From NCBI GenBank assembly GCA_049517415.1, contig JBEKSC010000003.1, positions 89,733 to 153,732 on the forward strand: a stretch of 64,000 nucleotides of DNA. The letters are read 5' to 3'. Positions 38,599 to 62,069 of this stretch are shown one piece after another; positions within the stretch are counted from its first letter, which is position 1; every line of letters starts with the position of its first letter. This DNA comes from Candidatus Bathyarchaeia archaeon (lineage in GTDB: Archaea; Thermoproteota; Bathyarchaeia; 40CM-2-53-6). The notes under the pieces are model-generated. The model was not told the origin of the DNA. It worked only from the letters and a program-made list of their open reading frames with translations, and searched no databases. The position numbers and the translations under genes are program-made.

Positions 38599-38641
38599 GG
38601 TTCAAATCCGATTGCCCGCACCACCAGACCCACACACACAC
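38599..38641 (+). repeat. Site A: tRNA-3' mimic + 14-bp core (38617-38630, inverted relative to B-H) + (CA)n terminus
   Basis: GGTTCAAATCCGATTGCC|CGCACCACCAGACC|CACACACACAC; inverted counterpart of site H. Confidence 0.9.
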
Positions 38642-39299
38642 TTTCAAATGCCCGAACGACGACGGTTTAACCAAAGAATCAAAGCAAAATCAGGACTTCA
38701 GTTGGCCCCAAATTCCTTGGCTAAGAATTCGGTTCCACTGTAGTAGTCCGCATCCTTCATGTCTTTTCGGATCAAGTCAATGTAATCTCGGATCTCCTTG
38801 TTTTCATAAGATACAACGATATAGTAGCCAAACATGTCATCGACCATCTTCTTCTCAAGAAGACCCTTCTTGATATACAGATCTAAGAGCTCAATGATTC
38901 CAAGAAAATCATCGAGGTCCTCGTCATCAAATTTCCCTCCGTTCCCCTTCAGCACAGGTTGATGCTCTTCAATTGCCCTGATGATTTCTGAATTCCTTCT
39001 GCGAAAGAAGAAATCATTATGAAATCTTAGGATGAGATCCCCAAGCGTACTTTGAGCCGATTTTCGGATTTGCCAATAGATCAAGAGCGCCGTAACGAGG
39101 GTTCCGATAGCCGCTAGCAAAGTTGAGAAAGCAGTGACGTCGATGCCAGGCGAACCGCCTATCTCGAAGATCGCCAAATCTACAAACCCGGTCCGTTTTG
39201 ACTTCATCGCTGTAAAGGAGTCAACTAGCTCATTTGCCTTTGCCAGGCCTGACTCGATACTTCCCCTAACAGCAAACAGCTACCGTTTCAGTGTGTGTG
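38631..39299. mobile_element. Cassette I (669 bp), (CA)n...(TG)n ended, single gene
   Basis: Bounded by cores A and B. Confidence 0.65.
38698..39207 (-). CDS. TM-anchored helical protein, DUF4760-like
   Basis: N-terminal TM, L..E.L...IKKG...YI..IRK..YY..E.L pattern. Confidence 0.6.
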   Translation of the reverse strand: MKSKRTGFVDLAIFEIGGSPGIDVTAFSTLLAAIGTLVTALLIYWQIRKSAQSTLGDLILRFHNDFFFRRRNSEIIRAIEEHQPVLKGNGGKFDDEDLDDFLGIIELLDLYIKKGLLEKKMVDDMFGYYIVVSYENKEIRDYIDLIRKDMKDADYYSGTEFLAKEFGAN

Positions 39300-39320
39300 G
39301 GTCTAATGGTGCGCACACTC
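39291..39320 (+). repeat. Site B junction (core 39300-39313)
   Basis: GTGTGTGTG|GGTCTAATGGTGCG|CACACTC. Confidence 0.9.
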
Positions 39321-39382
39321 ATGAAAGATGTTGTGGTCTAGGCTGGTGATCCTTGGGGTTCTGTTGCCAGTGGATTGTTCTT

Positions 39383-39505
39383 TCACGCTGCGACTGAGTT
39401 AAGTTTTTGCTGGTAGCGTTTCTCGTTTCTGGACTCGTACGGTTCTCGTCTGGTCAGCATGAACCATGTTATCTTGAGCATCTTGTTCGCGACGGCTATG
39501 ATCTT
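39383..39505 (-). pseudogene. IS110-family transposase C-terminal remnant
   Basis: Translates KIIAVANKMLKITWFMLTRREPYESRNEKRYQQKLNSVAA*, like the IS110 'AVARKL...W.ML....Y' tail. Confidence 0.6.
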
Positions 39506-39514
39506 TCATAAAGT

Positions 39515-39545
39515 CACACACACCAGATCGACGACGGTTCAGATT
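39515..39545 (+). repeat. Site C: orphan element end lacking the core
   Basis: CACACACACCAGATCGACGACGGTTCAGATT vs reverse complement of D-left CACACACACCTAGACGTACGACGACGGTTCAAATT. Confidence 0.75.
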
Positions 39546-40489
39546 TGCTCAGGCAGCAGGCTCCAGAGCGCTGCGATTTCGGCGACGAACAAAACAATGA
39601 CGAGGGCCGTTCCATAGATGTTGACCATCTGGCGCGACTCTTTCTTGGGCAAAAGCCACCAACGGAAAGCTCGGATGAATACCGGCATCGTGCCCCAGGT
39701 GGTGACGGCCACGCTCAAAACAAGGCTCAAGAAACTAGCTGGAGAGGGATGGAGACTTTTAATCAACGGGGCTAGAAAACGAATTTCCAGCATGACGGTC
39801 GGAAACAATCCGAGCAACACGAGCATTGCTGATTTCCAGTTCGCTGGCGGTTCTCCTGTTTCGTCGGTGGGAAACCAGCCAGGGAACGAGCTTTTCATAG
39901 TTTTGAACTGAGTTGCAGTGACAAAATTTTGCGCCTGTAGCACAAGTTGTTTGCGTTCGTCCGAGGCAAACCATTTTTCCAGTGTTTGAGGCGTGTCAAA
40001 ACGGACGAGTGTAATCCACTTTGCGTGTGAGCCTGACGCCGGTGGCTGGAAGTAATTGCCACGATAGCCGGGAAATCTTGCCTGTGCGGTCTGGATGTTT
40101 TCTTCCCAGGCGAAGTACTGGTCCTCCATGCCGGGTTTGATATCGGTAACGATTGCAGTTCCTACGTTGCCGGAAGTCGGAGCGTCCCTAGTTATTTCGC
40201 TTAAAGGGCTGACTGTTTTGGTGTCGGAGACTTCTTTCAAAAGTTCGCGGTGTCTATCTGATTGTTTGAAGGCTTTTGCTTGATCGGTGTTGGTGAATCG
40301 TTGTACCAGAGTCCAATCTTTATTCTGGGTGCTCGGCGGTATAATTTCTCCACTCATGAACCCGGGAAATTTTGCGCCAGACATCAGCAGTTTTACGAGC
40401 CAAGTAGTCAGATGTGCTGTATCCGAATCGTCAGTCGTTTCCAACCTTGTTACTAGTGCAGCGACATCACTTGTGGCTGTTTCAGTCAT
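39539..40489 (-). CDS. Tandem ABM (antibiotic biosynthesis monooxygenase)-like domains + C-terminal TMs
   Basis: Two repeats with FPGF/FPGY..RF, W..S.ER; C-terminal PP.WK..L..FP TM region. Confidence 0.7.
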   Translation of the reverse strand: MTETATSDVAALVTRLETTDDSDTAHLTTWLVKLLMSGAKFPGFMSGEIIPPSTQNKDWTLVQRFTNTDQAKAFKQSDRHRELLKEVSDTKTVSPLSEITRDAPTSGNVGTAIVTDIKPGMEDQYFAWEENIQTAQARFPGYRGNYFQPPASGSHAKWITLVRFDTPQTLEKWFASDERKQLVLQAQNFVTATQFKTMKSSFPGWFPTDETGEPPANWKSAMLVLLGLFPTVMLEIRFLAPLIKSLHPSPASFLSLVLSVAVTTWGTMPVFIRAFRWWLLPKKESRQMVNIYGTALVIVLFVAEIAALWSLLPEQI

Positions 40490-40632
40490 TGGATCTCTCT
40501 TCTTTTGTCGGATTTCGGTGGATTAGGTCAAATCTCCAACTCTGCAGATGTTTTACAGTGATCGTTTTGTCCATGATTTCCACGGGTTTATAGGGGGTAG
40601 CGACTCTGCCGGCGCAGGTTCCTTCGCAGTCT

Positions 40633-42033
40633 TTACCACGATCGTTTGTACGCTTGTTTACCCATGATCCATGTTTCGTCGACGTTGCGGTCGTCCCCAA
40701 CTACCATGATTGAGAACAACAGATCCGTCGCCTCTTGCATTGTGGTCGGCCCTTTCTTGCCGACCAAGAGGGACCCGCGCCAGACCATGGCTCTTTGACC
40801 GCCTTCCCAATCGAGTGCAACAAAGTCTGCTTCTTTGCCCGGCTCGAAGTTTCCGATGCGGTCGTCTATATACAGACCGTGGGCACCCCCCAGGGTAACT
40901 GAATAGAATGCCCTGTAAGGCGATAGCTTGTTCCGCTCAGACTCCTCAGGGTCTTCCCAGCGCGGATCGACGCTGCCGTCGAGCAACGTATTGTTGACCA
41001 TGCCGACCTTGTACGCCTCGTCAAGCACGTTGATCATCGAGAAACGATTGCCGCCGCCCATATCGGTACCAAACGAAAGTCTAACGCGATGATCCGGATC
41101 AGTGGCGCGACCGAGTCTAAACAGACCGCTGCCCAAGAACAGATTCGAGAGTGGACAGAAGGTGATCGAAGCATCGGCTCTAGCAACGCGACGGAATTCG
41201 GCATCGGACAACCAAACGCCATGGCCGCCAGAGAATTTCTTGCCAACCAGACCATATTTTTCGTAGACGGAGAGATAATCCTGACATTGATGGAATTCTT
41301 TCACGCCTCGGATTTCCGACGGGTTCTCGGAAATATGAGTGTTTACCCAACAATCGGGATGCTCCTGCTTCAGGCGTTGACATGCTTTCATCAAATCTGG
41401 AGTGGCGCCGAGCGCGAACCTCGGCGTGATGGCATAAAGATTTCTTCCTTTGCGATGATATTTCTCAATCAAACGCTTGCTATCCTTGTAGAAGTTTTCG
41501 GCGCTGTCCATAGAGTCGGGAGGCGCAAAGCGGTCCATACCAGTCAATCCCCCGAGAACCAGCATGTTGCGCCGAGTTGCTTCTTCAAAGAACTCTTCGG
41601 TGGCAACCGCGGATATGGTCGTGAATGCCTGACAGGTTGTGGTTCCCGAAGCAATCAGATTCTCGAAGAATCCGCGGGTGCCTTCTTTAGCGTACTCGCG
41701 ATCTTTATACTTCTTTTCTTCCGGGAAGACCCATTTGTTGAGCCATGGCAAGAGTTGTTGTCCGAATGCACCCAGAACCCGCGTCTGTGGGACGTGTATG
41801 TGACCGTCGACAAAGCCGGGTAGTATCAAGCGTTCTTTCAGATGTGTGATGGAAACCCCCGGGTACTTTGGCGAAATTTGATCATATGGGCCGAAGGCCT
41901 TGATTTTGCCGTCCTCGATAACCAGAAGGCCGTCCGGATGGAACCTCGCCGACGTCTCTTCGTGCCCAACGTGTTTCCAAGGATCGTCTATGAAATCAAA
42001 AAACGCGCCTCTAATCGCAACAACATTTACCAT
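40633..42033 (-). CDS. guaD: Guanine deaminase
   Basis: PGFVDGHIH.PQ, LLPWL...FPEE, AITPRFA, THISE, FCP.SN.FLGSG, GTD.GGG, GDDR. Confidence 0.9.
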   Translation of the reverse strand: MVNVVAIRGAFFDFIDDPWKHVGHEETSARFHPDGLLVIEDGKIKAFGPYDQISPKYPGVSITHLKERLILPGFVDGHIHVPQTRVLGAFGQQLLPWLNKWVFPEEKKYKDREYAKEGTRGFFENLIASGTTTCQAFTTISAVATEEFFEEATRRNMLVLGGLTGMDRFAPPDSMDSAENFYKDSKRLIEKYHRKGRNLYAITPRFALGATPDLMKACQRLKQEHPDCWVNTHISENPSEIRGVKEFHQCQDYLSVYEKYGLVGKKFSGGHGVWLSDAEFRRVARADASITFCPLSNLFLGSGLFRLGRATDPDHRVRLSFGTDMGGGNRFSMINVLDEAYKVGMVNNTLLDGSVDPRWEDPEESERNKLSPYRAFYSVTLGGAHGLYIDDRIGNFEPGKEADFVALDWEGGQRAMVWRGSLLVGKKGPTTMQEATDLLFSIMVVGDDRNVDETWIMGKQAYKRSW

Positions 42034-42149
42034 ACAACAAGTTCTCCTAACTCTGATTAGAGCATTTACAGATATCTACGCGTATTTATCATATATCCCC
42101 GAGGATGTTACTAATCGACGTTAACAACCATAAACAGATCTTGGTGTAA

Positions 42150-43565
42150 TTGAGACAAATTGATGTCGATGCGCTCAGGAGTCGACTGAAGGGACGGGCC
42201 TTCACTCCCGCTGATTCTGAGTTTAATGAAATCGCTTTTGGTGGTCTCTGGAACGAACTTCGACCCGATCGGCATCCCCAACTGATCGTGCGTGTTGTCA
42301 ACGACAATGATGTTATTGAAACGATAAATTTCGCTCGGTCGAACGGCATAAAAGTTGTAGTACGTGGCGGCGGACACAACTGGTGCGCTCCATCATTGAG
42401 AAACAGTGGCATAATGATCGATCTGCACAATCTCAATCAGGTTGTATCCATTGATCCTGATGCGCGAAAGGCTGTGGTTCAACCGATCATTAGCAACCGC
42501 GAGATGATCCAATATTTGAGCAAATACAACCTTGCCTACCCGAACGGACACTGCCCCGAGGTCAAGTTGAGTGGCTATCTGCTCAGCGGTGGCATGTCGT
42601 GGAATCAGGGAGAATGGGGCCCGGCTATCGGCAGTGTAGAAGCCATTGAGATGGTTACAGCCAACGGGGAGTTGATCACTGCTTCGAAAGATCAGAATAC
42701 TGATTATTTCTGGGCAGCGAGGGGCGCAGGTCCAGGGTTGTTCGCAGTTGCTTTAAGATATCACCTGAAATTGTATCCGCTCCCGAAAGCGATCACGACG
42801 AGCGCCTACTATTATCCGATGGAAAATCTTGTAGAAGTCGCGGATTGGCTTGGCTCAGTTACACACAGATTACCAAATAATGTCGAGCTGAGTTTCTTCT
42901 TGCTAAATGCTCCAGCAGAAATTGCCGACAAATGCAAGGCGAGCAACGGAAAAGTCTCCATGATCACCGCCACCATGTTCGCCGAAACACCGGATGAAGC
43001 GAAACCAGTATTGGCTATTCTCGAAGAATGCCCATTGTTGTCGAAGTGCATAAAGAAGGATGTTTGCAAACCCGCTACGTTCGAACAGCTCTTCGATGCT
43101 TCCGGTGCCTTATGGCCGGCACATCTGCGCAACACGGTCGATGCAATGTTCTCGAACGCCACATTACCAGAAATTTGTGGTTCGGTGCGTGATCACTTCG
43201 AAGCGTCACCTTCGAACCTAAATCTTCTCTTGTTCACCGTATTTACGGGCGAGAATGTTCCGGCGAAACTTCCCGACGCGGCCTTTTCGATGACCGCCAA
43301 GTTCTACGGCGGACCGTGGACAATGTGGGAAAATGCGGCCGATGATAAGACGAACATTGCCTGGCATCGCAAGTGCGTTGACCTGCTTGAACCGCATATG
43401 ATGGGACATTACGTGTCGGAGTCGAACACTGTTCAGTTCCCTGAATTCGTGGAGAAGTCATACACGAAATCGAATTGGGATCGCTTGGCTGAGTTGAGGA
43501 AAAAGTATGATCCCACCGGAGTATTCTTCGCATACTCAGATGGATTGACTGCGAACGCGGAATGA
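42150..43565 (+). CDS. FAD-linked oxidase (VAO/BBE family)
   Basis: RGGGH FAD site, WAARGAG, RL..L.KKYDP.G.F tail. Confidence 0.88.
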   Translation: MRQIDVDALRSRLKGRAFTPADSEFNEIAFGGLWNELRPDRHPQLIVRVVNDNDVIETINFARSNGIKVVVRGGGHNWCAPSLRNSGIMIDLHNLNQVVSIDPDARKAVVQPIISNREMIQYLSKYNLAYPNGHCPEVKLSGYLLSGGMSWNQGEWGPAIGSVEAIEMVTANGELITASKDQNTDYFWAARGAGPGLFAVALRYHLKLYPLPKAITTSAYYYPMENLVEVADWLGSVTHRLPNNVELSFFLLNAPAEIADKCKASNGKVSMITATMFAETPDEAKPVLAILEECPLLSKCIKKDVCKPATFEQLFDASGALWPAHLRNTVDAMFSNATLPEICGSVRDHFEASPSNLNLLLFTVFTGENVPAKLPDAAFSMTAKFYGGPWTMWENAADDKTNIAWHRKCVDLLEPHMMGHYVSESNTVQFPEFVEKSYTKSNWDRLAELRKKYDPTGVFFAYSDGLTANAE

Positions 43566-43726
43566 CCGCGGCCACAAGAAATCACAAAGGGAATTAACGA
43601 AGCCCTGAAAGAACAGGAATAACGATAGTCTGCGTGAGTACTACACGCAAGTTGCGAGTTTGTCGTATTCTTTTTGGACGGCTATAGCTTCGTCAAGTTT
43701 GTCTCTCACTGTAGTGAGTATGTCGA

Positions 43727-44026
43727 GTGGTCCTTGAATTGGAATTTGTTGACAACGCGCTCTTGGCGATGCATGGAATGCAAGCAAAGACAGATACAAG
43801 TACACCAGTTCTTCACCCGATAAAATGTCCACGATGCAGCCAGTCAAACGTAGCTGAATCGGGTTTTTGCTCAAAGTGTGGGTTGCCGCTGCAATTGAAA
43901 GTTGCCATGGAAGCTGAACAAAAACGAACAGAGGCGGACAGGTTGATGTCGCTCCTGCTTGATGATAATGAGGTGCGGCAGCTCATCGTCTCAAAATTGC
44001 GTGGAATGAACTTGACAAACATCTAG
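43727..44026 (+). pseudogene. C-terminal remnant of an archaeal tyrosine integrase (Zn-ribbon tail)
   Basis: VDNALLAMHG followed by CPRC...N......CSKCGLPL, resembling the tail after the catalytic Tyr of archaeal XerC-like integrases; no catalytic core upstream. Confidence 0.55.
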
Positions 44027-44302
44027 GCGAAAAGATGACTCAGCAGAGTAGGTTTCATTATTTTCGCTACGATCTGTCAAGTGTGGCGGACATAATTGCG
44101 CGACTTGAATCGCACTCAAAGTTCAACTCCAGCCGAGAAAAGGTGACGTTACCTTAACGGTTGACCGTCGAAGGTAAAACGCCTGCTGAGCAAGCGGGGA
44201 TAGAGGAACTGAGGAGTCTCTCAATCTCCGTACATTAATGTCCCATAATGCGAACACTAATATACCAGCGTCCATGCAATATAGTGCAGGAGAAATGTTA
44301 CT

Positions 44303-44776
44303 TTGAACACGGAAACCAGAAAGCTTACGCTTGCAGTCCTGCTCGCAGTCGTTTCAATCCTCGCGATTCAGCCTGCTTTGGTTCACGCGACCTCGCAAAC
44401 GGTAACGATCATAGCCCGAGGCAGCGCGACCTCGACAACCAGCACCGTTTCACCCAGCGCAAGAATCTACCTGAGAGGGATGGCGAACCTAAACGGTGGA
44501 AATATACAGCTCACCCAAATGAGCGGTATATTGCAAATCGGCCCAGTGTTTTACACGGTAATCAGAGGCCAGGGCCAAACCAACAGCCAGACCAACACTT
44601 TTCAGCTCAATTTGCAGGTAGGCGGAAATAATCCCGGGTCACTCGTACTTCAAGGGTACGCGACCCTAGGAGAAGGATACACCGTACTATTCACTCCACA
44701 ACAGAGCAACCTAGAAGGCCAATACTCACTCTGGCTGTACGGAGACCTTTTGATCACCCAGACGCCCTACAGCTAG
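44303..44776 (+). CDS. Secreted beta-rich hypothetical protein
   Basis: Signal peptide (RKLTLAVLLAVVSILA..VHA). Confidence 0.65.
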   Translation: MNTETRKLTLAVLLAVVSILAIQPALVHATSQTVTIIARGSATSTTSTVSPSARIYLRGMANLNGGNIQLTQMSGILQIGPVFYTVIRGQGQTNSQTNTFQLNLQVGGNNPGSLVLQGYATLGEGYTVLFTPQQSNLEGQYSLWLYGDLLITQTPYS

Positions 44777-44802
44777 AAGTCTCAGACTTAGCTTCGTTTC
44801 CC

Positions 44803-44823
44803 CTATTTTTTCTCCTTTTTTTT
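44803..44823 (+). terminator. T-rich archaeal-type terminator
   Basis: TATTTTTTCTCCTTTTTTTT just downstream of ORF 44303-44776. Confidence 0.5.
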
Positions 44824-44955
44824 ACGAGCCTCTATCTCGCTGGGTTTCGAGGTTTTCGGTTATCAACGGATTGGTAACAGCCACAAGAATTTCGGCCGTC
44901 AACCGACAACCTTACGTTACCCCTTTTCGCACAGAGCCCTTAGGCTTTCACGCGG

Positions 44956-45159
44956 TTACTTTCTTCTCGCACCGACGACGGTCAATGTAAGACCGCCTAA
45001 CAGGAGGAATATCCACTCCGTATCGACATGCTTTACGGTTCCTGTAAGGCCCGCCAACAGTAGTAATACCCCTGCTACCATGATCCCCTTATCCATATGC
45101 AAACCAATTTCGTGTAACCAAGAGTAGTTATTTACCGATGCCTTTGAAGCGTTCAACAA
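44956..45159 (-). CDS. Small membrane protein
   Basis: Two TM segments. Confidence 0.45.
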   Translation of the reverse strand: MLNASKASVNNYSWLHEIGLHMDKGIMVAGVLLLLAGLTGTVKHVDTEWIFLLLGGLTLTVVGARRK

Positions 45160-45390
45160 CTGGGATTATCGGCGTAACTGCGAACCATTTTCTTCTGTTT
45201 ATTCGATAACGTCCGTCGAAAACATTGACCTGGACACTGAGAGAACGTTCGTCATCTACGAACCCCGTAATCCTATCTAAATTCAATCTCAGTCACGAAA
45301 CCAACGACAAGTGGTTTCTGGTATAGAAAAATTGGGGGGGCGGTATCACTGATGCGACCGTCCAAATTTGAACCGTCGTCGTACGTCTAG

Positions 45391-45428
45391 GTGTGTGTGG
45401 GTATAGTGGTGCGCGCACACACACACAC
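45391..45428 (+). repeat. Site D junction (core 45400-45413)
   Basis: GTGTGTGTG|GGTATAGTGGTGCG|CGCACACACACACAC. Confidence 0.92.
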
Positions 45429-45447
45429 TTTCTGACGTAGGAACGAC

Positions 45448-45486
45448 GATCCTAATTACGATGGCCGCACCAATAGATACACACAC
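45448..45486 (+). repeat. Site E: internal degenerate tRNA mimic + core + CA tract
   Basis: GATCCTAATTACGATGGC|CGCACCAATAGATA|CACACAC. Confidence 0.75.
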
Positions 45487-45524
45487 GAAAGAGCGGTTAC
45501 CCGTCTTTGCCGGTTACGATGACT

Positions 45525-47264: not shown

Positions 47265-47465
47265 ATGCTTTCACGCAAGGTTATTCGTATACGTGCAATC
47301 CTTTTTCTCTTTCGGAACGGGTAAATCCTGAGAGGACTTCCAGGCTCCGTAAGTACGACAGGAATGAAATACATCGTTCAGGATGCTCTGCTGAAACTAT
47401 TAGCACCTGTGTATCATTACTGCCGCGACGGGGGTTATTTGGCCAAGCGTCGTCAGTCGTTCTTT

Positions 47466-53303: not shown

Positions 53304-53395
53304 AAACTCCGGGATATGCTATCTTATCGTTTAGTGTGCCGCTTGCCGAGCATTGGAGGCAATGTAATTTGAACCGTCGTCCGTCGTTAGTAAAA

Positions 53396-53431
53396 GTGTG
53401 TGTGTGTGGGTATAGTGGTGCGCACACACAC
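53396..53431 (+). repeat. Site G junction (core 53409-53422)
   Basis: GTGTGTGTGTGTG|GGTATAGTGGTGCG|CACACACAC. Confidence 0.92.
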
Positions 53432-53493
53432 CTAGAGACTTCGTCCCTTCACACGAGAAAACGGAACTCTCGTGAAAGTCTACGGAGTTGACC

Positions 53494-54720
53494 TCATGCT
53501 AGCCATGATTCGATTTCTCTCCATTCTTTCGCAATGATGATCCTTCTGTCCTCTACGAGAGATTGTATTCGTCCTATCTTCTTCTCATTCCATGGTTGGA
53601 GAAGCAGAATACCATATTTGCGTCGAGCGAGTAGATTATCCCACTTTCGTCTCTTAGCGGTAACAAAGCTCGTTATATTGTCAATGTTATCGTCAATGAG
53701 CATATCGGCGTCTGTCGCTGCCTTACCTGAATTCGTAGTATTAACGAATTCCACTCCATCGAACTGGAATTTGCTCCGAAGCCAGCCTTCTGTATCCACT
53801 TGAGTTTCGTATGGTCGACTACTTGCAACCTTAATGTTTGCTCTCATGCGCATTGTTTCGATAGGTCCTTTTGCGCCCTCCATTTCCGGCATGCTCGCCA
53901 CAAACTTCGGTTCCTTTAGATAACGAAGAATCAAATCTGTAAACCGCTCATCCCCGACCATAGTATCCCATTCAGTGATGTCCGATTTGGTCATGTTCAA
54001 GTGTTTCTCTGGATTAGCGCGTGCCAAGACATGTGGGACTTGGTCAGCAAGCACGCCATCTACGTCAAGTGCGACTGTCGGAGTCCTTTGCAACTTTAGT
54101 TTCCTTAGGGCGCTGGTGGTTAAGAGCTCATATTTTCCATGTCGCAAATATCTCGAAGCGAAAATTCCCACAAAATATGCGACTAGAGCTAGAAGATTTC
54201 CAAGCTGAAACCCAGATAGAGAATCGAAGAGTGACCATGGCAAATATGCTATTGCAATGAAGTATACGGAAAATAACGCCCAAAACATTGGTACACTGTT
54301 TGGCTTCAACGTTTTTGGGTTGAACCAACCGTGCTCTAGGACGGTAGAAAAGCCGTGAATGCAGTACATGAAGTAAATGACTGCCAACACCAAACCAAAA
54401 TCGCGTATAGAGTCAACGGATAAGACCAGACCTGTGTAAGACAATGCTATGAGAGAATCCAAAAGAAACCGGATCCAAGTCCAATTTGACCTCAAGTAAG
54501 GTAGGCTCTGGACCGATCTATGGTAATAGACCCAGCTAACAGCAATCACGAAAAAGGAAACCATCAAGGTGGCAAGAGGAACGAAATTAACCAAGAGATA
54601 AGTGGCGTAAGGATGTTGGAACAACCTCGCTCGAGTTTCGACGCCTAATGCTAGAACTACAACGAATAATAGCTCAACAAACTGAGAATAGTTCTTCGAA
54701 CGTTCATTTACCGACAACAA
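53494..54720 (-). CDS. Multi-TM domain fused to HAD 5'(3')-deoxyribonucleotidase-like domain
   Basis: About 6 TMs, then ALDVDGVLAD, SSR, T..WL, K...DMLIDDN, QPWN. Confidence 0.75.
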   Translation of the reverse strand: MLSVNERSKNYSQFVELLFVVVLALGVETRARLFQHPYATYLLVNFVPLATLMVSFFVIAVSWVYYHRSVQSLPYLRSNWTWIRFLLDSLIALSYTGLVLSVDSIRDFGLVLAVIYFMYCIHGFSTVLEHGWFNPKTLKPNSVPMFWALFSVYFIAIAYLPWSLFDSLSGFQLGNLLALVAYFVGIFASRYLRHGKYELLTTSALRKLKLQRTPTVALDVDGVLADQVPHVLARANPEKHLNMTKSDITEWDTMVGDERFTDLILRYLKEPKFVASMPEMEGAKGPIETMRMRANIKVASSRPYETQVDTEGWLRSKFQFDGVEFVNTTNSGKAATDADMLIDDNIDNITSFVTAKRRKWDNLLARRKYGILLLQPWNEKKIGRIQSLVEDRRIIIAKEWREIESWLA

Positions 54721-54751
54721 ATGTCAGTCCTCGCTTTCAATTCAGTTTCCG

Positions 54752-55444
54752 TTAAGGGGGCTTGCCGATTATAATCGACTGGATGATTAACGTCGCGCCT
54801 AAAGTGAGCAGGGGAACATATGCGAGCCAATGGTTACGCCGCAACCACATCATTAGACCGAATCCATGCCGGTCTTGGTAGAAGTCGTGTAGCACACGGG
54901 CTGCTCCATCATTAGCGATCAACCGCATGTCGGAATCAACATCATCCATCAATCGAGTGGACAGTTGAACCAAGAACAGCCAGAGTACATACAATACAGG
55001 TGCTGATGCCGCCAATGCAACTCTAGCTGACTGGGAAATAAATTCTGAAGATGTGGCAGCTGCTCCAAGCAGCACGAAAGCCGTTGGTATGAAGAGACTC
55101 CCCATCGCTATCATTGATTGTTCACGCCCTCGGCGAGAAACATCCAAGAATCTATCCTTGTCCTTCCCTTGTAGATGCTGAATATCGCCTCGCAGGTTTT
55201 CCAGTCTTCTTTTCCAATTCGCAAGCGCCACTTCGTATGCTACGAGATATGCGAATAGAATCAAAGAACCAAGAACTAGTCCTATCCCAACTGCAGGCGA
55301 CAACAGGCCGAATAGACAAAACCCCGAAATTGTGCACAGAATTAGACTGCAAAAGAAGTAAACGGCTGATAGAACAAGCAATGCATAGCCTACTGTAACT
55401 GCATTCAACCTAAGTATTGTGGTTGCTCTCAAGTCATGTTGCAC
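54752..55444 (-). CDS. Hypothetical membrane protein
   Basis: Several TMs; start overlaps cas1 stop. Confidence 0.6.
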   Translation of the reverse strand: MQHDLRATTILRLNAVTVGYALLVLSAVYFFCSLILCTISGFCLFGLLSPAVGIGLVLGSLILFAYLVAYEVALANWKRRLENLRGDIQHLQGKDKDRFLDVSRRGREQSMIAMGSLFIPTAFVLLGAAATSSEFISQSARVALAASAPVLYVLWLFLVQLSTRLMDDVDSDMRLIANDGAARVLHDFYQDRHGFGLMMWLRRNHWLAYVPLLTLGATLIIQSIIIGKPP

Positions 55445-56666
55445 CTATTGGAACCAGTCTATCACGAATGCTCGCATGAATCCGGAACTGTTTTCGATGG
55501 ACATTCTTGCGTAGATAATGAAGGGTACTCTTTCCGATTCCGCGCTTTTGAGCTTCGGACTGTGTCAAGGTCAGAATTGCTTTTGTAATTGCTCGATTAT
55601 CGACCTTCTCAAGGAAAGGCGCTGGCTCGCAGAAATCCACTTTGCGAGATCGTCCATTCATGAATCTTGCCAGTTCAATTGTTTTCTCTTGAATTACGGT
55701 GTCCCATTTCATGGTGCGATTCTTGTAGACTACTCCTGAGTTGAATTTCTCTCGCAGAACCGCGATGAATCGCTGCTTAGCGTCGGGCTCAAAACGGTAC
55801 CGGTAATCGTCTCCCGTGAAGTAGAAATCTGATAGCTTCAACGCTTCAGACTCAAATGCCTCGATGACCGATACGTCGGTTAGCCATCTAAACGGCTCCT
55901 GAAGATCATAAACCAAAGACTGCTTTGTCTGATAATCGCTGAAATCATGCAAGAAGCCAACTGACGGTTCAAGGCCTACGGCATTGATGGCTTTTCGGCA
56001 TTCGGCTTCAAGGAAACCATAACTGTAGTTTAGGGTTAAGTTTACGGGATCTGAAGCATTGTTCTGGTGACTTGAAGTCATTCGTCCCTGAAAATCAAGA
56101 TGCTCAGGCAGAACCTTCCCGAACGTCTCCCAATACCTCCTAGCCACACGCCCCTCAACCACGCGAATGTCCGGTGCAGTTGTAGCTCTACTCAGCTTGG
56201 AAGATTCAAGTCTTGTGAGCCGAATTTCCTTTTGGATATCATAACGTTCACCGAGCCAATCTAGAACCTGCAAACTCCTCGCAATCTTAGCTTGGACTAG
56301 GGCTCTGGCTATCGTGAACTTCTTCTTCGTGTCACTTGCTGCTTGAATCTGCGCAGCCCTAAGATCAGCCTTAACGGGCATCGGTGGGAGAATACTCGAA
56401 ATCAAAGTTCCATCGAAGCTCATTACGAAAACTGGAACCTTGTTCCTCGAAAGCCAATGTAAGGCACGTAGGGAAATGTAGCCACTGTGCCCGTCGATCA
56501 CTATGCTACTGTACGGGAATCGTCTAGGTTTGAACCTCAGAGTGGTCGCGAGTTTGTCGTCTTCGCGTCCATCGGTGATTACGAGTTCGGAACGCGATTT
56601 CAAATCCTGAACAGTAATCTTGACGCCCCAACCGGAAAGATGAAGCGGATTCAAGCGTCTCAGCAC
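55434..56666 (-). CDS. cas1: Cas1-solo, casposase type (C-terminal HTH)
   Basis: NPL..SG.G, IDG..G.IS..A..WL, EGRVA..YW, ASD..N..LNYSY, AVGL.PS.GFLH, LVYDLQE.FRW, C-terminal GIGKSTLHY HTH as in archaeal family-2 casposases; catalytic E/H/E positions present. Confidence 0.92.
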   Translation of the reverse strand: MLRRLNPLHLSGWGVKITVQDLKSRSELVITDGREDDKLATTLRFKPRRFPYSSIVIDGHSGYISLRALHWLSRNKVPVFVMSFDGTLISSILPPMPVKADLRAAQIQAASDTKKKFTIARALVQAKIARSLQVLDWLGERYDIQKEIRLTRLESSKLSRATTAPDIRVVEGRVARRYWETFGKVLPEHLDFQGRMTSSHQNNASDPVNLTLNYSYGFLEAECRKAINAVGLEPSVGFLHDFSDYQTKQSLVYDLQEPFRWLTDVSVIEAFESEALKLSDFYFTGDDYRYRFEPDAKQRFIAVLREKFNSGVVYKNRTMKWDTVIQEKTIELARFMNGRSRKVDFCEPAPFLEKVDNRAITKAILTLTQSEAQKRGIGKSTLHYLRKNVHRKQFRIHASIRDRLVPIGAT

Positions 56667-56671
56667 CTGAG

Positions 56672-56962
56672 TTATCCTATGTACTTATCTTCGATTCCCC
56701 TGCGTACCTTCTCCATGTATTCTGCGATTATGTCTTCCTTCGCAATCTCGCTAAGCGTTGCCGTGTCTTCCAGGAAGGCTCGTAACAACTCCTCGCGACG
56801 TTTCTTTCCGTAGATTGTGTTGAATACGTTGTACAATACCATGTAGTTCAGCGCGGTCGAGTAAGTAGCGTTCCGTCCTTTCTCAACAAGAATGGCCTGA
56901 AGCTTCCTAACATAATGGTCCATTATGGGATGAAGAGCGACCGTTTTCTTCACAACTGGCAT
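56672..56962 (-). CDS. Small DNA-binding protein (RHH-like), co-transcribed with cas1
   Basis: N-terminal KKTVAL strand followed by helices. Confidence 0.55.
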   Translation of the reverse strand: MPVVKKTVALHPIMDHYVRKLQAILVEKGRNATYSTALNYMVLYNVFNTIYGKKRREELLRAFLEDTATLSEIAKEDIIAEYMEKVRRGIEDKYIG

Positions 56963-57065
56963 CAGATATCACATTTGGTATGCTAGTCATACCGTCATAC
57001 TCTACGTTGACTTATAAGTGTGGCCATAAAAAGCGCCCCCCGCAGGTAAAACGCCAAAAACTGAG

Positions 57066-57097
57066 TTTGCCAAAAACATCTCGGTAGGATTGGCAAA
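57066..57097. promoter_or_regulatory. Inverted repeat in divergent promoter (candidate operator)
   Basis: TTTGCCAA-N16-TTGGCAAA between divergent operons. Confidence 0.4.
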
Positions 57098-57153
57098 TCA
57101 TGGGGACATTCGATTAAATATCGGTCGAGCATCGGCATTACTTTCGACAAAAC

Positions 57154-57429
57154 ATGCAAAAAGACGATCCAAAACTCGCTATCTTAGATGAGATTCGCAA
57201 GAGCGAATTGCCGCTAGCGGTGGAGAATATTCGCACTGCCTGCAAGATTGCGAACTGGAATACTGTGCTGAAGCACTGTCTTGAGCTACTTCTTGCGGAC
57301 GAGATCCGAGGAGCTAAGACCTCGAAGAGTTGGGTCTTCTGGGATAAGTCACTCTACGACAAGGCAGACAAGAAAACTCTCGGCGGAAGATCCGAGAAAA
57401 CGAACGGGCGAGGAGGTGATTGTGATTGA
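57154..57429 (+). CDS. Winged-HTH-like protein
   Basis: IL..I.....V..I......NW.TV.KH..EL...I...KT...W.FW. Confidence 0.55.
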   Translation: MQKDDPKLAILDEIRKSELPLAVENIRTACKIANWNTVLKHCLELLLADEIRGAKTSKSWVFWDKSLYDKADKKTLGGRSEKTNGRGGDCD

Positions 57430-57734
57430 CAGACCTTCAAGTGAACGTGCTGAAATCGATTAAACAAGTCAGCGAAAACGGACGATACACGATCAAGGGC
57501 GTTTCAGACCCACGCAGCACCAAGTTCGGAGAAGCAATAGTCCTAACCTTGCTCGATTCAAATGGAGAGGAGCGAATTCTCTTTGCGCCATATTCCCGAG
57601 ACGCGAGCGATCAATCGAATCTGGGAAGACTCGTTAAAGCTTTCACTTCAAACACAGCTCTGTGGATAAAGAGGAAGATAGACATCGAAATTGGCCCTGA
57701 CAAGAGACGTACCGTCAAACCAGTAGCAAAGTGA
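57426..57734 (+). CDS. Small beta-rich protein, possibly OB-fold ssDNA-binding
   Basis: TIK.V....TKFGE.IV pattern; SNL.RL...F....W. Confidence 0.45.
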   Translation: MTDLQVNVLKSIKQVSENGRYTIKGVSDPRSTKFGEAIVLTLLDSNGEERILFAPYSRDASDQSNLGRLVKAFTSNTALWIKRKIDIEIGPDKRRTVKPVAK

Positions 57735-57784
57735 GAAGCTGACCAGCCGAATGGTTCACTTCTCAACTCCCCCATTTTTCCATA

Positions 57785-58675
57785 ATGAGCTGTCTGCCGG
57801 GAAATACCCCACCCCAGATGGGGTATATCGGTAAAGGGGGGGTGGTATTCTCCGTGAAGGATCTTGAGCCTTTAGCCGATATTGTGACACTTGCACTTTA
57901 CACTGCATACATTGAGAATGTGCAGAAAAGCGACAGCTTATTGATCATCGCGAAACCTGAGAGCGGTAAGACTGAGCTGCTGAAGAAGTTCATCGTGAAC
58001 AAGAACATCGCTTACATTAGCGACCTGACAGCCTTCGGACTTGAACGAGACTACCTGCCCAAGATCGAAGCGGGTGAGATCAGGCATATCGTGATCCCTG
58101 ACTTGCTGAAGCCGCTTTCGCGTAAGGAGTCCACGGTTAACACGCTGATCACATCGCTTAACGCCCTCATAGAGGAAGGGTTGGCGTCCATCTCAACCTA
58201 CGCGACTAGGCGAATTGCTGAGAAGCATGTGAAATGCGGAATAATCACCGCAATCACAGGTGAGGAATTGGCGGATCAGAGGCATCATTGGAGTAGGCTT
58301 GGGTTTCTTTCGCGTGTAATTCCGTTCAGTTACTCTTACGGGATGCAAAGCGTCAAGAAAGTCTTCGACTACGTCTTAGGATTAGACTACCTCAAGGAAC
58401 ATGACATAGAGCTGAAACGCATCCCGAAGCAAGATCGGAAGATCAGTCTTCCACGCAGATACGCTCAGGCAATTCTGCCCACAACTACAACCATCGCTAG
58501 AGCTCAGAACACGTATGGTTTCCGGTTGCAGAAGCAGTTTCAGGCGTTATTGCAAGCATCCGCTCTCGAACGAGGGCGAACAACCGTAAACTCTCGTGAC
58601 GTGGAGCGGGTTCTTCGCTTGATGAACTGGGTGAACTTCAACATGCACCCTATCTCGTCGCGGGACCAACAATGA
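57785..58675 (+). CDS. AAA+ ATPase with MCM/chelatase-like lid (start probably GTG 57854)
   Basis: Walker A AKPESGKT, IVIPD, GFLSR Arg-finger, R.....LL.A.A...GR..V...DV lid. Confidence 0.7.
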   Translation: MSCLPGNTPPQMGYIGKGGVVFSVKDLEPLADIVTLALYTAYIENVQKSDSLLIIAKPESGKTELLKKFIVNKNIAYISDLTAFGLERDYLPKIEAGEIRHIVIPDLLKPLSRKESTVNTLITSLNALIEEGLASISTYATRRIAEKHVKCGIITAITGEELADQRHHWSRLGFLSRVIPFSYSYGMQSVKKVFDYVLGLDYLKEHDIELKRIPKQDRKISLPRRYAQAILPTTTTIARAQNTYGFRLQKQFQALLQASALERGRTTVNSRDVERVLRLMNWVNFNMHPISSRDQQ

Positions 58676-59121
58676 AAGTACGACTGTACCGAATGACATT
58701 GTCCACTGGCAGCTTATACGATAAGGGAAATCGGGAGGCGAGAAGTTTCGAAGGCCACTTCAAAGCCTACCTCCGCGGCAAGATTCGCCATAATAGGAAA
58801 CGACTCACAGACTTCGCTATTCCTAGGTTTCAAACGCAAGTTCGCCGCGAGCTGGGAATCCGAATTAGCCGCGCAAGAAGCCGGGTTGGGATTGAACGTG
58901 AAGAACCGGCATTATCGTCCAGTAAACGTGTTGACGCAGAGTTTCTGGTCATAACTTACCGCGGGAAGAAACATGTAGCAAGAAAGTTGCCACCGCGCAC
59001 ATTCAAGTTAGGGAGAGCAAGACGAGCCGCGCCAAAGACCAGAAAAAGACGTAGAGTGAAACATCGAAAGGAACCCCATCAACCTAAGGCATCGGTTAAG
59101 GGAAGATCACAGCGTGAATAA
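58672..59121 (+). CDS. Highly basic hypothetical protein
   Basis: R/K-rich, translationally coupled. Confidence 0.6.
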   Translation: MKVRLYRMTLSTGSLYDKGNREARSFEGHFKAYLRGKIRHNRKRLTDFAIPRFQTQVRRELGIRISRARSRVGIEREEPALSSSKRVDAEFLVITYRGKKHVARKLPPRTFKLGRARRAAPKTRKRRRVKHRKEPHQPKASVKGRSQRE

Positions 59122-59443
59122 TGTAGCATTGCTAAAGATCGATAAAGATTGCCACGTGGATGTAGCGCTGGAAAAGGAATACGTCCGCCAATCGATCGAA
59201 ACCCTATCTAAGCATAATCTTAGAGTTGAGTGGATCAAGGCAACAAGAACGTGGAATGGGACGCACTATTACATTCAGATTGACCCACCAGTGGAAGCCC
59301 ATACTGCGAACCGTTTACAGTACCTGCTTGGGGATGACGCGAAGCGGGTGAGTTTGAATGAAGCCCGTATCAACACAGGCTTATCGGAATGGAACAAACT
59401 CTTCGAAGCGGTCGGCAGAAAACTCAGAACAGTCTACCCATGA
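59114..59443 (+). CDS. Minimal AEP/prim-pol-like protein (putative)
   Basis: LKIDKD (hhDxD), TWNGTHYY (TxxGxH), LGDD. Confidence 0.5.
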   Translation: MNNVALLKIDKDCHVDVALEKEYVRQSIETLSKHNLRVEWIKATRTWNGTHYYIQIDPPVEAHTANRLQYLLGDDAKRVSLNEARINTGLSEWNKLFEAVGRKLRTVYP

Positions 59444-59710
59444 ACAGAGCTTGACCAAGGAGTGGGGATTGTTCTGGTGGGAGGAGAGAGCTTAGGAAGA
59501 GACTGAATTTACCTCCCGTAACTCTCCCATTTAAGGCAAATCGTTTCAGGTAACGGTACCTTGTCGGTTGATACGTCTAAATCTTCTGACTGTTACTTTT
59601 CGGTTGATGGAAGGGCACTGTAAAGTCTCGGGGACACGGTTCCGAGCGTCAAATGTCGGGACACGGCTTGGGAGTCTGTTCATAAATAGGCTAGGTGAGA
59701 ATCGCAGTCT

Positions 59711-60373
59711 ATGGCAGTATCTCGGCTCACTCTCTCAATCACTGGCGCTATCGCGGGGGCGTTGCTAGAACTGTTGCTCTTTCTGCCTGGGAGTCCTGCG
59801 GGCCTATACTTGGAAGCTACATTTGGAGTATCAAATGTCGTCATCATTACGGTACTCGTAGCGGCATTGGGTATCATCATTTTGTTTGCGTCCATTCTTG
59901 TTATAGCAATGGCTGTTGCAAAGTGGCGGCGAACATTCGATGCTGAGATTGTTGAAAAGAAGCGTTTTTTGTTGGGGGAAAGCGTACTTTTCAAGGCTTT
60001 CTTCAAAGGCAAATTGGCGCAAGGCTTCTTCACCTGCAAGGTTTCTCTTCCTAATGGCAGACAGGAATGGTGGCCTGCCTATGATACATTTCAACGCTCC
60101 GAGGAAGGGGATCTGGGTGTTCTTAGTGGACAGGATGTTCACGAGGCGAAATGGGGCTTTCAGATTCCAAGAGACTTTCCTACTGGAGAATATCGTGTGC
60201 AAATCGGAGTCTGGGATAGAAAAGATTCTAGTGCAGACAACGCTCCTGTGAAGGAAAAATCAGCTTCATTCTGGGTGCTTTCACCCGGCTATAAGGGTTC
60301 ACCAAGTGTAAGCACAGTAATTCCAGATGACGGTAAGTTAGTTCAGACCCTGAAAGGAATGGAAGTTATCTAG
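59711..60373 (+). CDS. Membrane-anchored protein with Ig-like C-terminal domain
   Basis: 2 TMs, then IP.D.P.G.Y.V.I.V pattern. Confidence 0.55.
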   Translation: MAVSRLTLSITGAIAGALLELLLFLPGSPAGLYLEATFGVSNVVIITVLVAALGIIILFASILVIAMAVAKWRRTFDAEIVEKKRFLLGESVLFKAFFKGKLAQGFFTCKVSLPNGRQEWWPAYDTFQRSEEGDLGVLSGQDVHEAKWGFQIPRDFPTGEYRVQIGVWDRKDSSADNAPVKEKSASFWVLSPGYKGSPSVSTVIPDDGKLVQTLKGMEVI

Positions 60374-61229
60374 TTCTGTCGGAAAATGGGAAAATCTTGG
60401 GTATTTTCGCTTTCGCAGATGTTCGAAGCGCAGCTAAAACAAACATCAGGGAAACGATTAGGATAGGGAGTGGAGTAGTTGGAAATTCTGGGACTGGAGT
60501 CGTCCCGACTTCAAATGAGGTTCCCGTTTGATTCAAACCTTGAGGTGTAACAATTATGTTACCATTGCTGTCAGTCATGCTCCATGACGAGGCTTGGTTC
60601 TGAAGGATTGACCCCGCTACATTGTTCACTGCTGCGCTACAATCGCTAAAGGTAACTGGTTGAAATGTTGGCAGGCTAATGTAATTGCCAGTTTTTGTGT
60701 CCCAAGGGTCCTCAACAATCCATTCTGCTGAAGCTCTAGCAGTATTAGAAATAATTACGGTGAATGTCCGGTTATCCCCTTCTTGTGCGTCTGCAATACT
60801 CAATCGAAACTGATTCTTTCCTAAGTAAGCTATTGAAGCGGTTATGTGTTCACCATAGTAAATCTCTGGAAATACTATTTGGGCTCCAGGACTGGCGAGG
60901 CTTGGATCTTCTTCCCACGCGAAATACCTTGGCGAACCATAGGCACAGAGTCCATAAGTTCCTACTTGTTCAGGTATAGCTGTGCCCAGTCCGTCAATTC
61001 CAATCCACACGCTTACGGCTTGCGAAACGATCTCCTTAGACCCTGTGCTTTGGCATTGAATTTTTGGTACAGTCCAACTGGCGCTAATGGCTGTTATGCC
61101 ATTTGAGTTTATGACGTATCCTGCCCAATTTCTCGAAGTCTGCTGGCTTGACGCGGTTTTCACGGTCGCTAACACTAGGGACGAGACTAAGAAGAGGAGA
61201 AGGATTTTCCGAACGATGCGTGGTTTCAA
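60366..61229 (-). CDS. G1-family glutamic peptidase with PEF-CTERM-like sorting tail
   Basis: Signal peptide, SRNWAGYV, WIGIDG, EQVGT, SAEWIVEDP; C-terminal VPEFP+TM+basic. Confidence 0.82.
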   Translation of the reverse strand: MKPRIVRKILLLFLVSSLVLATVKTASSQQTSRNWAGYVINSNGITAISASWTVPKIQCQSTGSKEIVSQAVSVWIGIDGLGTAIPEQVGTYGLCAYGSPRYFAWEEDPSLASPGAQIVFPEIYYGEHITASIAYLGKNQFRLSIADAQEGDNRTFTVIISNTARASAEWIVEDPWDTKTGNYISLPTFQPVTFSDCSAAVNNVAGSILQNQASSWSMTDSNGNIIVTPQGLNQTGTSFEVGTTPVPEFPTTPLPILIVSLMFVLAALRTSAKAKIPKIFPFSDRTR

Positions 61230-61265
61230 AGGTGAAACGGAGTTAGGAGAGGGTAGCGTGGGGGT

Positions 61266-61505
61266 TTAAGACTTGACAATTTTACGGCTCGCATTTTGAA
61301 TTATCGTTAACCACTTGTTATCTCCTTTCACTTTAATACCAGCGGTTTCAGCAGGTGTTTTCCCGTCTAGGGCTTCGTGTGGTCGTACATAGTTATGGAA
61401 AATCTGCATTCCTTTCAAAATCGGGGTGTCAGTCTTCTCCAAGGTTCGCGTGACACGTTCTCTATCTCGGATTTCTCCGTTCATGCGTTCCATCTTATTG
61501 TTGTG
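61266..61505 (-). pseudogene. DDE (IS6-like) transposase C-terminal remnant
   Basis: NNKMERMNGEIRDRE...HNYVRPHEALDGKTPAE.AGI. Confidence 0.7.
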
Positions 61506-61544
61506 AACCTGGCCAGGTAGCCGAGCTTGGCCTAGCGTACTAAC

Positions 61545-61940
61545 GATTTTTCCCTGTCAATTTCTCACTTTGACATTTCCTCCACTTTTCCATCCCGATT
61601 TTCTCTGTTTCTGTGTCAAATGCGCTTCTTGCATTGGGAAATGGAAAACACCCAATGACACAGGAAATTCACAATGACAATTCCTGTCACAGGGGTTTTT
61701 CTTTTCTCATTTTTCCGTGACATTTCATGCTTTTTCTCATGTCATTTCCGGTATCTTTTCGATTCGCTGTCCAAATCGTGAAAATGACGTGGAATGAGCT
61801 GGAATTTGAACTTGAAAATTCACTCAATGACGGTATGTTCCGGAATTTTGACAGTGACATTGACAATGATCTGGCTGACTTTCCGCGCACATCTCATCTT
61901 TCACTAAAATCGGAGTGACAGCACAAGGAATCGCTGACCA
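61545..61940. repeat. Non-coding tract dense in TGACA/TGTCA pentamers
   Basis: About 11 TGACA/TGTCA copies counted by eye in ~370 bp, interleaved with TTTC/GAAA runs. Confidence 0.55.
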
Positions 61941-62026
61941 AACAATGAAATAACGGCGGAAAGAGAAGCTAGACTCTCCAGCCCATCGATCCTACGTTCC
62001 GTTTGTGGAGTCCGGCCCCGTTTTTC

Positions 62027-62069
62027 GTGTGTGTGTGGGTATAGTGGTGCGGGCATCCAGATTTGAACT
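62027..62069 (-). repeat. Site H: tRNA-3' mimic leader + core (62038-62051) + (CA)n terminus
   Basis: Minus strand AGTTCAAATCTGGATGCC|CGCACCACTATACC|CACACACACAC. Confidence 0.92.

Follow-up and report, generated by a model that had tools for sequence, protein, structure and literature searches.

The DNA considered here, called the window below, is a stretch of 64,000 nt from a Bathyarchaeia archaeon of peat soil, and its subject is an island of about 23 kb in which the gene of a casposase-like Cas1-family integrase lies among gene-sized units separated by a 14-bp core sequence, GGTNNNNTGGTGCG (GGT-N4-TGGTGCG). The core is present exactly six times in the window, at 38617 on the - strand and at 39300, 45400, 47475, 53409 and 62038 on the + strand (cores A, B, D, F, G and H, respectively), against a mean of 0.07 in dinucleotide shuffles of the window, none out of 100 shuffles reaching six. 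Successive cores delimit intervals of 669, 6086, 2061, 5920 and 8615 bp. As seen on reading the junction sequences, a (TG)n run precedes every core of the + strand, and the cores are followed by CACAC at B (2.5 units only), CG(CA)6 at D and (CA)4-5 at F and G. Core H is followed by a T-arm-like leader, GGCATCCAGATTTGAAC, and core A sits on an inverted leader; these two ends (38596-38630 and 62038-62072) form a 42-nt inverted repeat, 88% complementary. The six sites, their N4 letters and the interval lengths are as given in an initial annotation of the window, and the (TG)n-core-(CA)n layout that it had read at B, D, F and G is confirmed.

The genome of the window is designated G000, its relatives G001, G004, G014, G018, G019 and G021, and the sequencing runs X1, X7 and X20. 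From left to right, and with the cores oriented as CGCACCA-N4-ACC, the island comprises the following features.

38371-38509, + strand: intron-containing real tRNA gene (Rfam tRNA 26.8 bits, E 0.0015; ARAGORN with introns, C3:128103-128241)
38485-38509, + strand: 3' end of this tRNA gene and left island border, direct repeat with 62134-62158
38510-38595: left arm of an imperfect inverted frame of about 110 nt bearing leader A (right arm 62073-62133)
38596-38616, + strand: leader A, with T-loop-like GCAGGTTCAAATCCGATTGCC at tRNA spacing and no 5' half, a pseudo-tRNA end; inverted repeat of leader H, no tRNA called
38617-38630, + orientation: core A, CGCACCACCAGACC, 14-bp target
38631-39299: unit 1, 669 bp, with a good left terminal repeat, a weak right end and inverted cores at its flanks
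38698-39207, - strand: DUF4760 gene (Pfam), the sole gene of unit 1
39300-39313, - strand: core B, GGTCTAATGGTGCG (motif search)
39314-39515: end fragment, about 200 bp, of another element, its first 189 bp also found beside cores in G001, G021 and G019
39516-45399: element W, with terminal repeats at 39516-39547 and 45357-45399 (paired as an inverted repeat, 95% complementary over 19 nt) and a left end without core; its cargo encodes an ABM-like membrane protein, a guanine deaminase, an FAD/BBE oxidase, a Zn-ribbon protein and a secreted protein (Pfam/NCBIfam)
45342-45356, - strand: degenerate core-like 15-mer, GGTATCACTGATGCG, inside the right terminal repeat of W, abutting its leader-like motif
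45400-45413, - strand: core D, GGTATAGTGGTGCG (motif search)
45414-45465, + strand: solo left terminal repeat with CA tip, ACGACG-like part and leader-like GATCCTAATTACGATGGC
45466-45479, + strand: opposite-orientation core, CGCACCAATAGATA, then a new CA tip
45480-47474: unit 3, 1995 bp, with a single AAA-ATPase gene (45525-47150, - strand)
47475-47488, - strand: core F, GGTCCAATGGTGCG (motif search)
47489-47534, + strand: solo left terminal repeat (end alignment)
47535-47548, + strand: opposite-orientation core, CGCACCAGTGATGA, then a new tip
47549-53408: unit 4, a decayed Cas1 element encoding a Ymh-family protein, two unknowns and a DUF4365 protein, with a canonical right terminal repeat
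52614-53327, - strand: Cas1 pseudogene limited to residues ~170-405 and interrupted by one TAG, with 67% identity to the intact copy
53409-53422, - strand: core G, GGTATAGTGGTGCG, identical to core H (motif search)
53423-62037: unit 5, autonomous element, 8615 bp, CA/TG-tipped and flanked by a perfect direct duplication of 14 bp, adjoining leader H
55434-56666, - strand: intact Cas1-family integrase, casposase-like, 410 aa (Pfam Cas_Cas1, E 5e-52)
62038-62051, - strand: core H, the resident target adjoining the leader; the homologous site in G014 is also ATAG
62052-62072, - strand: leader H, GCAGTTCAAATCTGGATGCC then CGCACCA, 87% conserved in G014
62134-62158, + strand: direct repeat of the tRNA 3' end and right island border (23/25 nt, last 15 nt exact)

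The island thus holds one autonomous element, one Cas1-dead element, cargo-only elements, end fragments and solo terminal repeats, and gene orientation within the units is mixed. The proposal that the junctions cut it into cassettes, each a single unit, had to be given up, as the borders are more complex, with extra cores, solo terminal repeats and an internal left end. The initial annotation had none of the degenerate core at 45342-45356, the opposite-orientation cores at 45466-45479 and 47535-47548, and the left end at 39516; both opposite-orientation cores stand behind a solo terminal repeat of 46-52 bp. A candidate nested-element tip, the poly-G run at 45334, was discarded since a matching C-rich end was not found.

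The best PDB match of the intact Cas1 is 6OPM (E 7e-71, residues 9-404), covering chain residues 22-411 with the C-terminal part of 6OPM included, compared with E 3e-25 for the best CRISPR Cas1 match. 6OPM is the casposase of Methanosarcina mazei (PMC6977970, this and the other articles cited being drawn on in excerpt). The second Cas1 of the island lacks its first ~170 residues and carries the internal stop. Elsewhere in G000, contig C8 carries a full Cas1 (72% identity) and contigs C9 and C37 carry fragments, and the closest Cas1 loci belong to metagenome-assembled genomes (MAGs) of Candidatus Bathyarchaeota/Bathyarchaeia. A profile scan (Pfam/NCBIfam) of 25 open reading frames (ORFs) of the island revealed no tyrosine recombinase, attC, TnsABCD or other recombinase domain, in agreement with the earlier statement that a casposase-type Cas1 is the only intact integrase. 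Judging from its sequence, this protein would be the catalyst acting on the sites described here.

The partner genes expected of a casposon are missing. No PolB was found by Pfam among the 25 island ORFs, nor in the 27 ORFs that surround three more full-length Cas1 genes (two from a Bathyarchaeota MAG, one from G004), and the same two sets are devoid of Pfam matches to an HNH nuclease or an HTH-HEAT protein. Four PolB matches exist in G000, outside elements; that on C8 was inspected closely, and the other three were judged by their junction-free surroundings in junction scans. The PolB near the C8 Cas1 was rejected as element-borne, its neighbours being housekeeping genes (arginase, RsmB, F420 ligase, OMP decarboxylase). 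By BLASTP, the proteins common to the compared autonomous elements are Cas1 and one 149-aa ORF only. This basic ORF (58672-59121) has 44% identity with an ORF of 152 aa lying next to another Cas1 element (L044:7349-7807). The cargo is without common theme, and a role of it in defence was dismissed, PADLOC returning a single weak match among 16 proteins (PD-Lambda-3_B, the Ymh protein).

Read on the opposite strand, the core is CGCACCA-N4-ACC, which is the 3' terminus of a tRNA extended by 7 nt; CGCACCA represents the acceptor-stem end, the discriminator base and the encoded CCA. The leader preceding it, GGTTCAAAT-N5-TGCC, reproduces the exact tRNA spacing of T-loop, T-stem and acceptor. The presence of tRNA-T-arm-like leaders before H and A, already recognised from the sequence, is therefore upheld, and the arrangement is likened to the systems of Aciduliprofundum boonei and M. 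mazei (PMC9939771, PMC6977970). The target is tRNA-end-like in sequence, A and H being pseudo-tRNA ends and not real tRNA genes. Indeed, neither possesses a 5' half, default ARAGORN and Rfam at gathering threshold call no tRNA in the window, and with permissive settings Rfam yielded nothing at H and only the neighbouring real tRNA at A. Of note, that real tRNA is itself missed by default ARAGORN and by Rfam at gathering threshold, and most of the 28 tRNA calls in G000 need introns allowed, some of about 1.2 kb.

TGGTGCG followed by a leader is present 29 times in G000 and 0 times for the reversed motif, which served as the control for genome counts. These 29 sites comprise one real tRNA-Arg, two CA-tip artefacts and 26 pseudo-tRNA ends, 20 of the latter being occupied by a TG tip and two by a G/C-rich tip. 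The genuine tRNA-Arg, located elsewhere in the genome, also ends in CGCACCA and is unoccupied; core plus leader without element tip is found there, for instance, and at C8:85762.

The CA tracts had been suggested to be terminal inverted repeats (TIRs); an alignment of the 61 CA-tipped ends that stand beside a core in G000 shows that they and the TG tracts form the tips of such repeats. The consensus of these ends, about 50 bp long, consists of (CA)4-6, TTTT, ACGACGAACGACGACG, GTTCAAAT, N5 and TGCC, sometimes followed by CGCACCA-N7. The ACGACG-like subterminal repeat is present in 27 of the 61 core-side ends compared with 47 of 727 other (CA)3 sites, GTTCAA[AT]T in 16/61 versus 10/727, and leader plus CGCAC in 9/61 versus 7/727. 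This enrichment of leader motifs in CA-tipped ends indicates that the elements' own ends contain the leader motif. All units of the island have CA/TG tips, and many bear the consensus end. A second subfamily, whose tips are (CCG)n/(GGC)n or G-rich, shares this 14-bp core and leader (L036:15585 and L037:2842 of G004:C45; G000:C9:21018; G000:C39:5157). Mini-arrays made of a core, a terminal-repeat unit of 36-52 bp and a core were noticed at C2:856-990 (three in a row), C39:269-348 and C39:4436-4515, and similar core pairs 46-64 bp apart occur in relatives. At G000:C12:2150-4140, four consecutive units of 600-700 bp carry a leader after the core at their start and a (TG)n tip at their end; these one-tipped units are at odds with a simple two-ended transposon.

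The initial annotation had taken the 14-mer for a duplicated target, and it does behave as a casposase target copied on insertion, although the picture is not a simple one. The autonomous element G-H has identical direct cores on both sides. Among the 30 exact cores of G000, GGTATAG is restricted to D, G and H, which fits the copying of the resident core at leader H with each insertion, and the homologous H site of G014 also reads ATAG. A second perfect duplication was observed in G004, where a Cas1 element with (CCG)n/(GGC)n tips is flanked on both sides by GGTCAGCTGGTGCG; it adjoins a leader, and behind it stands an older element with a TG tip. On the other hand, clean duplication is the case for one of 13 simple units (see below).

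The junctions are widespread. G000 contains 30 exact cores versus five for the reversed control, and about 55-60 looser junctions on at least 20 contigs, many near contig ends and often decayed. Of the 105 genomes sampled in the order, 37 contain the core followed by CACAC, while the control gave 0 matches in every genome; the motif is concentrated in the genus of the window (19/22) and a sister genus (10/10). With regard to turnover, in G014, the closest relative with flanks 87-92% identical, the tRNA, the inverted frame of about 110 nt and both leaders are conserved (87% for leaders and frame), and the ~13 kb between the leaders show no similarity to the G000 cassettes. Element W, which makes up the body of cassette B-D, is absent from all 22 other genomes of the genus; of the cassette, these contain only its first 189 bp, beside cores in three genomes, and one ORF-sized piece in two others.

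The outer frame deserves a separate remark. Its two arms align globally with a score of 100, against 44.2 +/- 6.9 (maximum 62.5) in 200 shuffles, and both the 25-nt direct repeat and the inverted frame (38510-38630 versus 62038-62133) are conserved in G014. The exact 15 nt of the direct repeat correspond to a casposon-like duplication length. An older element that delivered both landing sites may have left the direct repeat and inverted frame as its shell. Near the right end of G-H, a stretch of ~250 bp (61235-61516) has copies of 68-77% identity on C23 (two), C4 and C14, and contigs of several runs branch at 61471-61507.

Taking together the anatomy of the junctions, the homology of the Cas1, the two perfect duplications around intact Cas1 elements, the locus-specific core variant, the spread and the turnover versus G014, we consider, with a probability of about 0.78, that the island is a tandem and nested pile-up of polymerase-less, family-2-like, casposon-like Cas1 transposons and their remnants. 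The Cas1-family integrase would join (CA)n-tipped ends to a bipartite target, consisting of the T-arm-like leader and, directly after it, the 14-bp core, which would be duplicated on insertion. Each insertion would restore leader and core, so that later elements could hit the same spot and the newest would adjoin the leader. The newest would then be the autonomous 8.6-kb G-H, with the Cas1-dead F-G behind it, and the cargo-only units would presumably be mobilised in trans. Since many of the ~50-bp ends bear a leader-like motif, sometimes with a core-like CGCA, resident elements may in turn become targets; insertion into their ends would add nesting to the tandem layout and strand solo terminal repeats between two cores. 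The flanks would afterwards be scrambled as elements decayed and short repeats recombined, which probably also explains why some flanks are inverted.

Several observations weigh against this reading. The 13 simple units, defined as running from start to end in G000, one of which (on C8) actually spans two units because the pattern missed a tip, have identical direct cores in one case, direct but different cores in six and inverted cores in six. Such mixed flanks are not predicted by a simple cut-and-paste history; they probably derive from insertions nested in end-borne targets and from subsequent recombination or aberrant transposition between short repeats. Another such point is the lack of PolB, which bears on how the elements replicate or are transferred. 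G-H itself matches the canonical terminal repeat in its tips and a short inner motif only. Except for Cas1, the window cassettes are single-copy in the genome, a search for second copies having yielded only Cas1 similarity and the ~250-bp repeat, and only the 149-aa ORF is shared; consequently, copy number offers no proof that the cargo units moved. No insertion, excision or length polymorphism was seen in the contigs of four public peat and wetland runs. Apparent deletion joints from 47488/47499 to 53358 have sides of just 24-30 letters and were taken as cross-links between similar ends, and a loose end at 62134 in X1, a candidate island-less allele, proved to be a contig of the real tRNA (114 nt = 38371-38484) aligned to the 25-nt repeat.

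A further point concerns the association with the enzyme, which the initial annotation would have seen undermined by a motif common where this Cas1 is missing. Among 40 relatives searched for both, the motif is present in 14 of the 20 that have a Cas1 match and in seven of the 20 in which no Cas1 was found, including G018 (98% complete) with 16 matches; the relatives are kin and not independent, and weak Cas1 matches outside the genus could be CRISPR Cas1. Association with Cas1 is thus seen but incomplete, and either relics outlast the enzyme or the enzyme comes from elsewhere. As to empty sites, G014 and G018 have the left and right flanks of the window island hundreds of kb from each other or on separate contigs, and likewise those of the C8 Cas1 array, and no junctions were found within 1.5 kb of those flanks in the loci of 10 relatives. 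The separation of the flanks and the absence of junctions from the flanking loci leave no clean empty-site comparison. Both arrays are located at synteny breaks (~62159-62176 for the window island, ~17200-23100 for C8), and this coincidence raises the possibility that the elements reshape Bathyarchaeia chromosomes.

Other explanations can be envisaged for the same facts. In the most ambitious of them, the casposase of this lineage has ceased to serve a self-replicating transposon and runs an open-ended array, in which a conserved leader and a 14-bp repeat take up kb-sized single-copy cassettes and 36-52-bp terminal-repeat 'spacers' in leader-proximal order, every insert supplying a fresh leader-like motif by which the target is re-created. 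If true, it would bridge casposon and CRISPR array as a living intermediate, and would be the Cas1-based equivalent of an integron. We regard it as unlikely, and an integron/CRISPR intermediate is not needed to explain the data. The layout from which the initial annotation had deduced an integron- or CRISPR-like capture array is that of casposons, and the array itself was not substantiated: the genome is without Cas2, none having been found over its whole length, and Tandem Repeats Finder (TRF) detected no regular short repeat-spacer array in 36000-64000.

The same two absences bear on a domesticated version of this idea, in which the host keeps the leader and 14-bp repeat and a casposase loads single-copy cassettes and ~36-52-bp 'spacers' derived from terminal repeats, in the manner of an integron or proto-CRISPR. 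It draws on the fact that the cassettes are single-copy and have only their ends in common, on the retention of leaders and outer frame between G000 and G014 with replaced content, and on the mini-arrays of C2 and C39; moreover, the solo-TIRs of M. mazei have been speculated to be spacer-like integrations (PMC6977970). However, the cargo lacks a theme beyond its one weak defence-family match, the arrays are scattered and often decayed with mixed gene orientation, and selfish accretion accounts for the same facts, so that such a function appears improbable.

We are more doubtful still that the 14-mer is part of the elements, as an extended terminal repeat or att-like core, the units being joined by site-specific or homologous recombination. 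Twelve of the 13 simple units lack identical direct flanks, the inverted 14-mers of six merely extend the inverted repeat, a few N4 variants recur on many contigs (CTAA nine times), and the two arrays coincide with synteny breakpoints versus relatives, all of which would suit recombination. Yet (CA)n- and (CCG)n-tipped elements are flanked by the same kind of core, core and leader also exist without element tip, GGTATAG is restricted to one array beside its leader, and the island scan found no other recombinase domain; recombination after transposition explains the mixed flanks equally well. Finally, a misjoining of contigs at GT/CA tracts, suggested by the many cores less than 1 kb from contig ends and by contigs that break at F (only overlapped by contig ends and never bridged) and often at G, is scarcely credible: single contigs with 0-1 differing letters bridge D (X1, X7, X20) and G, H and the right border (X1, one contig of which covers 51801-62300), and the same architecture is present on megabase contigs of relatives. 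The misassembly feared in the initial annotation is thereby countered at D, G and H, F being unbridged; all 20 runs containing the stretch are possible sources of the assembly, so that their contigs are not independent support and say nothing on habitat range.

It remains to place this tandem and nested pile-up of Cas1 elements among known systems. By the definition reportedly given by Krupovic in 2014, a casposon is a self-synthesizing transposon with Cas1 and PolB. The Bathyarchaeia elements have a Cas1 outside CRISPR/Cas2, terminal inverted repeats and a duplication of about 14-15 bp, and lack an element-borne PolB. Like family 2 casposons, they show a 14-bp CGCA-led duplication at a tRNA-3'-end-like site, but are without the PolB, HNH and HTH-HEAT core genes. 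They display neither the 25-50-bp repeats, similar spacers and Cas2 of CRISPR arrays nor the IntI, attI and attC of integrons.

The closest known relatives are the family 2 casposons of Methanosarcina (MetMaz-C1 and the tandem pairs Met2HT1A3-C1/C2 and Met2HA1B4-C1/C2) described by Krupovic et al. in 2016 (PMC4779613). In Methanosarcina, 14-bp CGCA-led duplications are located in tRNA-Leu 3' ends or intergenic regions, pairs of casposons, one often dead, are separated by the shared duplication alone, and solo-TIRs occur, with assemblies breaking at these places (PMC4779613); for M. mazei, such CGCA-starting duplications at a tRNA 3' end, tandem integration and solo terminal repeats have been reported (PMC4779613, PMC6977970). 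The island has in common with family 2 a Cas1 whose best solved relative is 6OPM, the 14-bp CGCA duplication, tandems, solo terminal repeats and assembly breaks. It differs by the missing PolB, HNH and HTH-HEAT genes, by 26 pseudo-tRNA ends instead of real tRNA-Leu, by at least five units in a row as compared with two, by (CA)n or (CCG)n tips, by the leader-like motif within the terminal repeats and by tens of junctions per genome.

The casposase of A. boonei requires a leader, the T-psi-C loop segment, and performs tandem integration in vitro (PMC9939771). AciBoo-C1 of this species (Beguin et al. 2016 and 2019) shares with the island a bipartite target, made of the duplicated 14-15 bp and the T-psi-C-loop leader, and its extreme element tips alone matter (PMC9939771, PMC6614799); in contrast, it has a real tRNA-Pro target and carries PolB. 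The thaumarchaeal NitNF5-C1/C2 (Krupovic et al. 2019) are likewise two tandem casposons at one target, with variable cargo, but belong to family 1, carry a protein-primed PolB and target the ef-2 gene (PMC6563490). A TIR-only mini-casposon can be moved in trans in living M. mazei, where tandems of it arise (PMC10359463). This TIR-cargo-TIR arrangement, moved without Cas1 or PolB of its own, is an analogue of the cargo-only units, with the difference that the mini-casposon is an artificial construct and that the mobility of the island's natural cargo units is deduced from their structure. Tandem integration as such is not new, casposons in tandem at one target having already been published (PMC4779613, PMC6563490, PMC10359463).

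As in integrons and Tn7-type islands, single-copy cassettes pile up at one fixed site, and the comparison with Tn7 was made for casposons by Krupovic in 2016 (PMC4779613); in the present case, terminal inverted repeats and a duplicated target take the place of tyrosine recombinase, attC and TnsABCD. With CRISPR arrays, the island shares a Cas1-family integrase, a leader beside a duplicated repeat and an apparent leader-proximal order, but its repeat is of 14 bp, its inserts are element-derived and range from 36 bp to 8.6 kb, and Cas2, effectors and regular spacing are absent. A PolB-less casposase lineage, arrays of at least five units with single-copy cargo, dispersed pseudo-tRNA landing sites, and leader motifs inside terminal repeats were not found in the literature searched, subscription papers and supplements lying outside the search. 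What is new compared with known casposons is the absence of PolB from the elements examined, the tens of junctions per genome, the spread in the order and the end-borne leader motifs.

The CRISPR adaptation module is regarded as descended from casposons, and the few of these that have been studied bear a polymerase and are present in one or two copies per genome. The Bathyarchaeia family, in which as many as five units are stacked behind a single leader and whose ends bear the leader motif, represents a natural setting for asking how a Cas1 integrase picks leader-proximal sites, whether it moves foreign cargo and very short DNA, and how a transposon could give rise to a repeat-insert array.

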